Sequence record: OR677401
Source of the DNA: Escherichia phage LQ5
Strand: one strand, 5' to 3'
Length of the DNA stretch: 64,000 nt
Shown here piece after piece: positions 3,170 to 4,932 of this stretch. Each line of letters starts with the position of its first letter. The first letter of the stretch is position 1. The notes below the pieces were generated by a model. That model ran no database searches, was not told the DNA's origin, and saw nothing but the letters and a program-made list of their open reading frames with translations. The position numbers and the translations under genes were made by a program.

Positions 3170-3766
3170 ATGAAAACGTATAAAGAATTTATCGCCGAAG
3201 CTTCTGTAGGAAAGGTCCAAGGCATTAATAAAGATGAGTGGACTTACAAAGGAAACGGCGTTGACAACCCAGGAAATGGTTTTAACGCTAAAACAGCTCC
3301 TATTGAACGGTACTTGGCTACAAAAGCTTCCGACTTTAAAGCTTTCGCCTGGGAAGGACTTCGCTGGCGTAACGACCTAAATATTGAAGTTGACGGACTT
3401 AAATTTGCTCATATTGAAGATGTTGTTGCTAGTAACTTAGATGCAGCTTTTGTTAAAGCTGACGGTGACCTTCGTCGCTGGAATTTAAAACTGTTCTCTA
3501 AACGGAAAGGCCCGGTATTTGTACCTAAAGCAGGTAAATGGACTATTGATAATAAATTGGCTAAAGCAGTTAACTTCGCCGGTCTTGAATTTGCCAAGCA
3601 CAAATCAACATGGAAAGGTCTTGATGCAATGACTTTCCGTAAAGAATTTGCCGATGTTATGGCTAAAGGCGGCTTTAAGGCAGAAATAGATACCTCTAAA
3701 GGTACGTTTAAAGACGCTAATATTCAGTACGCTTACGCCGTTGCTAATGCAGCCCGTGGTAATTAA
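3170..3766 (+). CDS. ipIII: internal protein III-like (capsid-targeted)
   Basis: N-terminal MKTYKEFIAEA capsid-targeting-type leader; 198 aa like T4 IPIII. Confidence 0.7.
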   Translation: MKTYKEFIAEASVGKVQGINKDEWTYKGNGVDNPGNGFNAKTAPIERYLATKASDFKAFAWEGLRWRNDLNIEVDGLKFAHIEDVVASNLDAAFVKADGDLRRWNLKLFSKRKGPVFVPKAGKWTIDNKLAKAVNFAGLEFAKHKSTWKGLDAMTFRKEFADVMAKGGFKAEIDTSKGTFKDANIQYAYAVANAARGN

Positions 3767-3790
3767 TAAAGCCGATACTTGATAAAAGTT

Positions 3791-3820
3791 GTTTACATCT
3801 CCTGTAGTCATGATACTATA
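3791..3820 (+). promoter_or_regulatory. T4-type early promoter (GTTTAC -35, GATACTATA -10) with SD-sequestering inverted repeat
   Basis: arms atctcctgtag (3797-3807) and ctacaggagat (3831-3841) flank the -10. Confidence 0.7.
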
Positions 3821-3846
3821 GACCTATCAACTACAGGAGATTAAAA

Positions 3847-4263
3847 ATGACTCGTATCAACCTTACCTTAGTATCTGAATTGGCTGACCAACACTTAATG
3901 GCTGAATATCGTGAATTACCACGTGTTTTCGGTGCAGTTCGTAAGCATGTTGCTAATGGTAAACGTGTCCGTGATTTCAAAATCAGTCCTACTTTTATCC
4001 TTGGCACAGGCCATGTTACATTCTTTTACGATAAGCTTGAATTTTTACGTAAGCGACAAATTGAGCTTATAGCCGAATGTTTAAAACGTGGTTTTAATAT
4101 CAAGGATACTACTGTCCAGGACATTAGTGACATTCCTCAGGAATTCCGTGGTGACTATACTCCACACGAAGCTTCTATTGCTATATCTCAGACCCGTTTG
4201 GATGAAAAAATTGCACAGCGTCCTACCTGGTACAAACATTATGGCAAGGCTATTTACGCTTAA
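3847..4263 (+). CDS. denV: endonuclease V (pyrimidine dimer DNA glycosylase)
   Basis: 138 aa, almost identical to T4 endonuclease V as recalled ([29 protein letters not shown]...). Confidence 0.95.
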
Positions 4264-4306
4264 TTAAATCCGTGATAGAATACTTCTATCAACTTAAGGA
4301 ATAACA

Positions 4307-4666
4307 ATGAAAACTTATCAAGAATTTATTACTGAATCTACTCAGCGCATTAACGAAGCTATGTCTCCTGAACAATTGGCTAAGGCTAAAGAAGGGCTGA
4401 ACCCATCTGAAGTTTTTAAAGTTACAGGTAAAGACTTTGCTTCCATGGCCACTAACCAAAGTCTGGCTAAAGAACTTAAATCTAAATCTAACTTCATTCA
4501 TGCTACGTGGAATGGTGATTCTCTTACTTCAATAAGTGTGTACAATAAAAAAGGTCTCCTTAAGAGTTCTTATGGCGCGGATGCCATCCGTGTTTCTAAA
4601 TCAGATTGGCATAAAAACACTACTAAAGCAGAAAAACCTCATAACCCGGCACTAGACCATCTTTAA
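4307..4666 (+). CDS. ipII: internal protein II-like (capsid-targeted)
   Basis: MKTYQEFITES leader; 119 aa. Confidence 0.6.
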   Translation: MKTYQEFITESTQRINEAMSPEQLAKAKEGLNPSEVFKVTGKDFASMATNQSLAKELKSKSNFIHATWNGDSLTSISVYNKKGLLKSSYGADAIRVSKSDWHKNTTKAEKPHNPALDHL

Positions 4667-4674
4667 GGCTTAAT

Positions 4675-4932
4675 ATGAAAACTTACCAAGAATTTATTAC
4701 AGAATCCACTTTAGTTTCTAAACGTTGGAATATGATTGTAAACGTTAAACCTTCCGGCACTGAAGTTTCTATGGCCGACCCTAATGATGACGAACTTGAG
4801 CACGCTTTTAGCTCTAAAGAAACTGACGAGAAAGTGGTTAAGCAACTGGTTGCTGATGCAGATCAACTTCGTAAAGTAGCAGATGTTGTTAAGCTGTTTA
4901 CTAAGAAAGGTTTTAAACACGAAGAACGTTAA
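4675..4932 (+). CDS. internal protein, third CTS-bearing paralogue
   Basis: MKTYQEFITEST leader repeated; 85 aa. Confidence 0.6.
   Translation: MKTYQEFITESTLVSKRWNMIVNVKPSGTEVSMADPNDDELEHAFSSKETDEKVVKQLVADADQLRKVADVVKLFTKKGFKHEER

Follow-up and report, generated by a model that had tools for sequence, protein, structure and literature searches.

The question raised by positions 3,170 to 4,932 of Escherichia phage LQ5 (sequence record OR677401) is why three genes of one short locus begin with nearly the same ten residues and then continue into bodies that differ in length and are unrelated in sequence. In the 64,000-nucleotide (nt) stretch analysed here, called the window, these genes encode proteins of 198, 119 and 85 amino acids (aa), and the original prediction took them for T4-type internal proteins (IPs) that are targeted to the capsid by a common leader and injected with the DNA. 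We arrive at a similar reading, in which three IP cassettes encode products that would be packaged, cleaved and injected, with anti-defence cargoes that are exchanged by way of the leader, and we give this reading as a whole a probability of about 0.78. The arrangement is a textbook T4-type feature and not a new system; shared leaders with divergent cargo, anti-restriction function and the plasticity of the IP loci have all been published already (PMC3012670, PMC2839356, PMC12373910). What is new is the recognition of a rare IP family, that of the 85-aa protein, whose gene was already present but unannotated in public genomes, and of the unnamed family of the 119-aa protein, to which the instance of exchange at the leader boundary adds a minor point. 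The current understanding of IPs is left unchanged, and it is the 'hypothetical protein' annotations in WG01-like genomes that are corrected. The ideas of a capsid-targeting leader and of IP loci were reportedly published earlier by Repoila (1994) and by Mullaney & Black (1996), and an internal protein is said to have been described as an inhibitor of GmrSD type IV restriction by Bair et al. in 2007.

The list of open reading frames (ORFs) of the window holds exactly the three leader-bearing ORFs that had been predicted (n=3), all ATG-initiated and on the + strand. A six-frame scan of the 64-kb window found the leader pattern in these three places only, each at the start of an ORF, and the chance expectation for a pattern of ~8 fixed residues in this much sequence is about 1e-5 by a rough estimate. 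An independent repeat search returned a three-copy, 53-nt repeat family (D1) that spans the ribosome-binding site and the leader. The leader DNA of the 119- and 85-aa genes is identical at 33 of 36 nt, with a longest exact run of 14 nt, and both agree with that of ipIII at 27-29 of the 36 nt; identity of the DNA flanking the leaders is 23-36%, and the similarity is thus limited to about 36 nt. Because of the window-wide scan, the repeat family and this restriction of DNA identity to the leader, we regard the trio as real and not as a product of chance. When the first 10 residues were removed, BLASTP comparison of the three bodies gave a single alignment (119 vs 85 aa, E = 2.1), which is at chance level. 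The cargoes are therefore unrelated and the three proteins resemble each other in the leader only, just as the bodies had been claimed to be divergent.

Identity of the surrounding sequence amounts to 98.7% with Shigella phage PSD9 and to 97.9% with Escherichia phage WG01 (Straboviridae, Tevenvirinae, Dhakavirus), and judged by these values the window is that of a WG01/PSD9-like Dhakavirus, a T4-type phage. The gene order at the matching region of PSD9 and WG01 is nudE-e-ipIII-denV-119aa-85aa-vs.8-...-regB-vs-tk, and the corresponding order in T4 is e-ipIII-ipII-denV-vs.8. All three leader genes are flanked by e (2594-3082) on one side and by vs.8 (from about 5049) on the other, in synteny with T4, and by its gene order the locus is the e-proximal one of the two T-even IP loci (e-ipIII-denV-vs.8). 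The second IP locus (57B-tRNA), adjoining 57B, is outside the window; its copy in WG01 contains genes annotated as Ip7 and Ip9 and one further internal protein. LQ5 differs from T4 in having ipIII-denV-IP-IP in place of ipIII-ipII-denV. The denV gene, which has no leader and does not encode an IP, indeed falls between the 198- and 119-aa ORFs as the original prediction stated, and such interleaving is by comparison ordinary for IP loci, because both the cassette content and the position of denV vary among close relatives. For instance, the order is ip3-ip7-denV in VR5, 127c-denV-125c-124c-123c in RB69, and 132-aa leader gene, ipIII, ipII-like, denV, 119, ip7-like in AnYang; the place of denV relative to the IP cassettes hence differs from phage to phage.

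The leader itself has the make-up of a T4 capsid-targeting sequence. The first ten residues of T4 IpIII are enough to have a protein incorporated into the head; within them, targeting depends on residues 4 and 7 (Y4, F7), and processing by the gp21 protease, which cleaves after L/I-x-E, depends on residues 8 and 10 (I8, E10) (PMC9026906). T4 IpII and IpIII both start with MKTYQEFIAE, and all three LQ5 ORFs start with M-K-T-Y-x-E-F-I-x-E, keeping Y4, F7, I8 and E10. The L/I-x-E motif stands at residues 8-10 in each of them, as IAE followed by A in the 198-aa protein and as ITE followed by S in the 119- and 85-aa proteins, and the 119-aa protein has a second candidate site, INE followed by A, at residues 15-17. 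A cognate protease and core are indicated by the annotation of WG01, which includes a head maturation protease, scaffold proteins and the Inh inhibitor, encoded by genes outside the LQ5 window. The match to IpII and IpIII, the critical residues that are kept and the canonical IP locus together uphold the interpretation of the shared start as the leader of T4 internal proteins. Among the relatives, leader variants were also observed: in PSD9, WG01 and phage 04086 the 119-aa protein carries E6Q (MKTYQQFITE), the 85-aa protein of phage 04086 begins with MKTYQQFIAE, and RB69ORF123c has A and not E at position 10, by which the canonical cleavage site is absent (positions of the variants in extracted-locus numbering: L001 3307-3666; L049 2133-2758; L050 2501-2830).

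For the 198-aa protein the relationship extends into the body. Among the PHROG families it falls into phrog_5341 'internal virion protein' (E = 3.7e-114), in the body it shares 87% identity with T4 IpIII, and its counterparts in PSD9 and JS10 are annotated as internal protein III; on this homology it is the orthologue of T4 Ip3, with a predicted mature product of 188 aa (about 20.8 kDa, isoelectric point (pI) 9.6). T4 Ip1 inhibits the GmrSD of strain CT596, and in 2025 Ip2 and Ip3 were found to inhibit two further, very divergent GmrSD type IV enzymes without cross-protection, the system that Ip3 specifically inhibits being a GmrSD type IV restriction system encoded by two genes (PMC12373910). 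The statement that internal proteins include anti-restriction factors therefore holds for Ip1, Ip2 and Ip3 of T4, each of which blocks a different GmrSD enzyme (PMC12373910), and the 198-aa protein is a probable anti-GmrSD factor because of its orthology to Ip3. It is the only one of the three with homology to a characterised GmrSD inhibitor. Unlike T4, LQ5 has at the two remaining positions bodies without detectable similarity to IpI, IpII or IpIII (Ip1, Ip2 and Ip3) in sequence or, for the 85-aa protein, in fold.

The 119-aa protein matches phrog_3966, which is labelled 'unknown function' (E = 1.1e-26). With tblastn it was found in 90 phage records. Twelve of these, from Dhakavirus and other WG01-like phages, reach 90% identity or more; the remaining 78 stay under 60%, with about 28-38% among the matches listed, and include Mosigvirus RB69 (RB69ORF123c). 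RB69ORF123c shares with it a homology of about 35-38% over 112 residues, the locus before vs.8 and an MKTYQEFIA leader, but differs at position 10 as noted, and the family is not annotated as internal protein in the examined records. A word-indexed search of 5.8 billion proteins returned only its own cluster. The predicted mature product, cut after E10, has 109 aa (about 12 kDa, pI 9.5), or 102 aa if it is also cut at I15-N16-E17. The public records examined annotate the protein as 'hypothetical' with one exception, UPW37832.1 of phage vB_EcoM_ESCO10 (in the cluster of window 4307-4663), which is called 'RNA polymerase ADP-ribosylase'; this label is probably an annotation error, because family searches of the 119-aa protein give it no support. 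A match in the PDB, 9hnh_A (E = 4.6e-4), is to a de novo designed solenoid over a short 'AKE(N/G)LNPxEvFKV' motif only and was judged to be due to chance. The structure model of the protein, built from a 2-sequence alignment, is of low confidence (pLDDT 67.5).

The 85-aa protein is much rarer. Six phage records, representing five phages, contain it, all at least 97.6% identical and all from Dhakavirus/WG01-like phages, and it forms a single cluster in the 5.8-billion-protein collection (word-indexed search), with 4 member sequences and an identical protein on 18 contigs. An exhaustive HMMER search of its body against 1.84 billion representatives found, besides its own cluster, only one other protein (P0002), which has 88 aa, is 50% identical to the body (E = 7.5e-13) and starts with MKTYQEFITE. 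P0002 is encoded directly before a vs.8 homologue on a 119-kb T4-like metagenomic contig with several leader-bearing genes around denV. As this diverged homologue keeps the length, the leader and the position, its existence argues for the 85-aa ORF being a real, leader-dependent gene under selection. The family seems thus far to be confined to WG01-like genomes deposited from 2016 onward and to this one metagenomic contig, although it may already be among the more than 30 variants of the older surveys (Repoila et al. 1994; Comeau et al. 2007). Searches of Pfam and NCBIfam gave no match for the 85-aa protein (PADLOC was not searched), and a sequence search of the PDB gave none either. Four of its six PHROG matches cover residues 1-21 only, i.e. 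the leader, and the two others, which reach residue 65-67, are weak (E = 0.0027 and 0.047). Every public copy is called 'hypothetical protein', and no mention of its accessions was found in the literature searched; with six records and two clusters it is indeed a rare and uncharacterised IP-type protein. The predicted mature product has 75 aa (8.5 kDa) and a near-neutral pI of 6.1. One of five structure predictions reached a pLDDT of 82, and this model has a TM-score of 0.86 to an independent BFVD model of the identical WG01 protein; the fold predicted for the mature form is a beta-meander plus two helices, without known relative. The contig that encodes P0002, Logan contig SRR10097265_5069 (L004 2743-5267), has around denV an IpIII-family gene and four or more genes with the leader, among them those of 158, 92, 134 and 88 aa; the 88-aa gene is the sole distant homologue of the 85-aa protein, and a gene downstream in the locus has a weak Pfam match to Acb2/Tad1-hairpin.

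How the different bodies came to stand behind one leader is indicated by an alignment of the window with WG01, AnYang and JS10 from the 3' end of denV to the 5' end of vs.8, in which identity was scored in 30-nt steps. The window and AnYang are 86-100% identical through the 119-aa gene and the next leader, up to nt 4708 (Table 1). The body of AnYang at the position of the 85-aa protein is unrelated, has 99 aa and belongs to a family annotated as Ip7 in phage VR5. JS10 has the same non-coding region next to denV and a leader joined directly to an Ip7-type body, without the 119-aa gene. Three different bodies are therefore found on one upstream sequence, with the junction exactly at the 3' end of the leader. 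Homologous recombination from leader to leader would produce such junctions, and since the breakpoints sit at the leader 3' end in both AnYang and JS10, the comparison supports a swapping of cargo by way of the leader; the proposal that leader DNA serves as recombination substrate for cargo exchange thus gains a concrete instance. The breakpoints fit the picture of shuffling in the T-even IP loci, which the LQ5 locus also resembles in having unrelated cargoes behind one leader, two loci and early-promoter/stem-loop elements (PMC2839356). A leader-DNA scan of 48 sources (this window, the loci of 7 annotated relatives and 40 IMG/VR loci) identified 102 leader-bearing ORFs with 25 unrelated body families, in line with the more than 30 IP variants cited in PMC2839356. 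Among phages that are 93-99% identical, a further leader gene of 132 aa (MKTYNEFIAE...) is polymorphic in presence and position: in WG01 and AnYang it follows e, whose end it overlaps, and precedes ipIII; in JS10 its place is between ipIII and denV; and the LQ5 window and PSD9 lack it (extracted-locus numbering: L002 2076-2474, L007 1576-1974, L003 2807-3205).

Table 1. Coordinates of the leader genes, neighbouring denV, promoter-type elements and the exchangeable segment in the LQ5 window
Feature	Position	Strand	Basis
T4-type late promoter motif TATAAATA	2564-2571	+	Upstream of e; only exact late motif near the locus
Early-type promoter cassette, ipIII	3078-3117	+	TTTACA, 16 nt, TG-n-TAGTAT at 3089-3116; D2 copy 1
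ipIII orthologue, 198 aa	3170-3766	+	MKTYKEFIAE start; phrog_5341; body match to T4 IpIII
Leader 1, MKTYKEFIAE, predicted gp21 cleavage after E10	3170-3199	+	ORF list, motif
Early-type promoter cassette, denV	3781-3846	+	TTTACA, 16 nt, TACTAT at 3792-3819; D2 copy 2
denV, endonuclease V, pyrimidine-dimer glycosylase, 138 aa	3847-4263	+	PF03013, E = 1.3e-14; phrog_1183, E = 5e-63
Early-type promoter-like site, 119-aa gene	4253-4281	+	TTTACG, 17 nt, TG-n-TAGAAT; -10 part is repeat D6
119-aa IP-type protein	4307-4666	+	MKTYQEFITE start; phrog_3966, which includes RB69ORF123c
Leader 2, MKTYQEFITE	4307-4336	+	ORF list, motif
85-aa IP-type protein	4675-4932	+	MKTYQEFITE start; rare family without annotation
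Leader 3, MKTYQEFITE	4675-4704	+	33/36 nt same as leader 2, codons 11-12 included
Replaceable cargo segment	4708-4994	+	AnYang identity falls from 86-100% to 23-66%, 96% again at 4995

By analogy with T4 IpIII, the ten-residue leader would bind each protein to the scaffolding core of the prohead, and the prohead protease, a gp21 homologue, would cut after E10 at I-x-E, in the 119-aa protein perhaps also after E17. The products of this cleavage, of about 20.8, 12 and 8.5 kDa, would be retained in the capsid alongside the genome and injected with it, which would place them in the cell ahead of all phage gene expression. For the 119- and 85-aa proteins the most likely role is that of additional inhibitors, each of narrow specificity, directed at host nucleases or at other defences of the immediate-early phase; the likeliest targets would be enzymes of the GmrSD family acting on the sugar-modified cytosines of the phage DNA. 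New cargoes would be exchanged through homologous recombination, for which the short conserved leader and the repeated early-promoter cassettes would provide the sites. The likeness to T4 IpII and IpIII comprises the same type of N-terminal leader, the I-x-E protease site, the e-to-vs.8 locus, small size, and a non-essential and variable character, and likeness to the GmrSD inhibitors Ip1, Ip2 and Ip3 comprises the proposed delivery with the DNA, the locus and the leader, with an IpIII orthologue present (PMC12373910). On these analogies it is very likely that the 119- and 85-aa proteins are packaged and injected. That the 85-aa protein is an anti-defence factor we consider slightly favoured, and that its target is a type IV (GmrSD-like) enzyme can be suggested only tentatively; an anti-GmrSD role for the two proteins is our best guess from their context. 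It has been proposed that all genes in both IP loci target variants of the GmrSD family (PMC12373910). IPs can be seen as pre-made weapons delivered with the phage DNA, each characterised one of which disarms a specific host restriction enzyme.

Several points weigh against this reading. The packaging and expression of the 119- and 85-aa proteins are matters that we infer by analogy. Their putative cleavage sites are I-T-E before S, whereas T4 has I-A-E before A (T and S vs A and A at P2 and P1'), and thus have a variant P1' residue. With its near-neutral pI, the mature 85-aa product departs from T4 Ip2 and Ip3 and from the 119-aa protein, which are basic, and its structural model is fragile, the four other predictions having a pLDDT of 41-47. 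No exact late promoter stands directly upstream of the IP genes, although T4 is equal in this respect. Moreover, Ip4-10 of other phages showed no reproducible inhibition of the tested GmrSD classes (PMC12373910), which leaves some IPs without a known type IV target; in those supplementary files of Silas et al. that were checked for correspondence with the 119- and 85-aa proteins, sequences or accessions of ip4-10 were absent.

The same result for Ip4-10 would fit a different role, in which the two proteins are packaged but are not defence inhibitors, being instead DNA-associated or charge-balancing proteins, aids to prohead assembly or agents that alter host physiology in another manner (cf. 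Alt). The 119-aa protein, with its basic pI, resembles the classical DNA-binding IPs, and the head-assembly defects of T4 IpIII mutants (PMC9026906) are also consistent with a non-defence role. However, all three T4 IPs with an assigned function are specific type IV restriction inhibitors (PMC12373910), the IP slot is hypervariable and dispensable between phages that are 95-99% identical, which is atypical of a structural role, and a near-neutral 85-aa product would be a poor DNA counter-ion; we therefore hold this explanation to be unlikely. We are similarly doubtful that the 85-aa protein is an injected anti-defence factor with a target other than GmrSD, such as another modification-dependent nuclease, RecBCD, or an abortive-infection/signalling system acting at DNA entry. 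That it would inhibit a defence not yet tied to internal proteins appears improbable, with a nuclease or sensor for arabinosyl-type cytosine, or a non-restriction system at DNA entry, as one possibility for the novel target; if true, the scope of IP function would be wider than the GmrSD enzymes associated with phages that carry glucosyl-hydroxymethylcytosine (glucosyl-hmC). The 119- and 85-aa ORFs might also be decaying or non-functional remnants that kept the leader through a recent duplication and are unmade or unpackaged, as the missing separate promoter before the 85-aa gene, the rarity of its family and the leader substitutions in close relatives (E6Q, T9A) could suggest. Yet both ORFs are intact and have a Shine-Dalgarno sequence each, in a geometry of translational coupling; the exact 85-aa protein recurs on 18 contigs, its same-length homologue at 50% identity retains leader and genomic position, and a conserved hydrophobic pattern goes together with the one confident compact model that agrees with BFVD, all of which makes decay very improbable.

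Under the preferred reading of injected anti-defence cargoes, the relevant enzymes may differ from those known for Ip1, Ip2 and Ip3, as LQ5 DNA, unlike that of the phages carrying these inhibitors, probably bears an arabinosyl-type and not a glucosyl-hmC modification. At 37015-41726 the window has a six-ORF cluster between the DNA polymerase and uvsX homologues, with a 567-aa member containing NTP-transferase and aminoglycoside-kinase-like domains, a 232-aa member of the thymidylate-synthase family, and ORFs of 124 and 178 aa that match by position and length the WG01 genes annotated as 'phosphoheptose isomerase' and 'thymidylate kinase'. The first 50 kb of WG01, in which the counterpart of this cluster lies, contain no gene annotated as an alpha- or beta-glucosyltransferase. 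The cluster resembles in its gene content the RB69-type arabinosylation cluster (PMC8056088, PMC13390438) and not that for T4 glucosylation, and the host enzymes that matter may accordingly be ones that recognise arabinosylated cytosine; the GmrSD enzyme BrxU cleaves arabinosylated-cytosine DNA (PMC13390438 / PMC8056088). The inventory of 85- and 119-aa cargoes offers candidates to be paired with orphan type IV and other defence systems, and may aid host-range prediction for therapeutic T4-like phages.

The elements between the genes are of a kind also found at other IP loci. The late motif upstream of e makes read-through transcription into the IP genes possible, and the layout in T4 is the same, with late motifs before e only. 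The early-type sites before ipIII, denV and the 119-aa gene follow the pattern TTTACA/G, 16-17 nt, TG-n-TAnnAT. The cassettes of ipIII and denV form a 40-nt repeat of 80% identity (D2), and a 28-nt repeat of 75% identity (D6) is common to the denV cassette and the region upstream of the 119-aa gene (4253-4300). A 17-nt inverted repeat (3792-3808/3830-3846) covers the stretch from the denV promoter to the ribosome-binding site of the gene. In T4, a homologous element precedes ipIII and a near-identical one precedes denV. Early-promoter-based and stem-loop elements at IP loci were noted by Repoila et al. (1994), as summarised in Arbiol et al. (2010), who proposed them as drivers of IP shuffling (PMC2839356). 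An AAGG(A) Shine-Dalgarno sequence precedes each leader ATG. The 119- and 85-aa genes are likely co-transcribed and translationally coupled, because the promoter scan of the locus gave no promoter-like site directly before the 85-aa gene, which begins 8 nt past the 119-aa gene and has a Shine-Dalgarno sequence overlapping the 119-aa stop codon.

Downstream of the leader genes, a structured RNA was considered for 4933-5081 and rejected, with no Rfam match and a fold no better than that of shuffled sequences (z = -0.23); the perfectly conserved block at about 4995-5024 is explained by a coding remnant of the Vs.8 N-terminus. A GTG-initiated 52-aa ORF (4973-5131) encodes VRDSRQPVIRSSPSAVMGKCRKGRI, with 80% identity to the first 25 residues of T4 Vs.8, and the remaining Vs.8 homology (37% identity) is in another frame from about 5043 (ORF 5049-5609). 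Relative to T4, vs.8 is thus frameshifted or split near 5040-5050, and relatives annotate the downstream part only; judged by its sequence, the gene may be split, its N-terminal part may have decayed, or the frameshift may be programmed.

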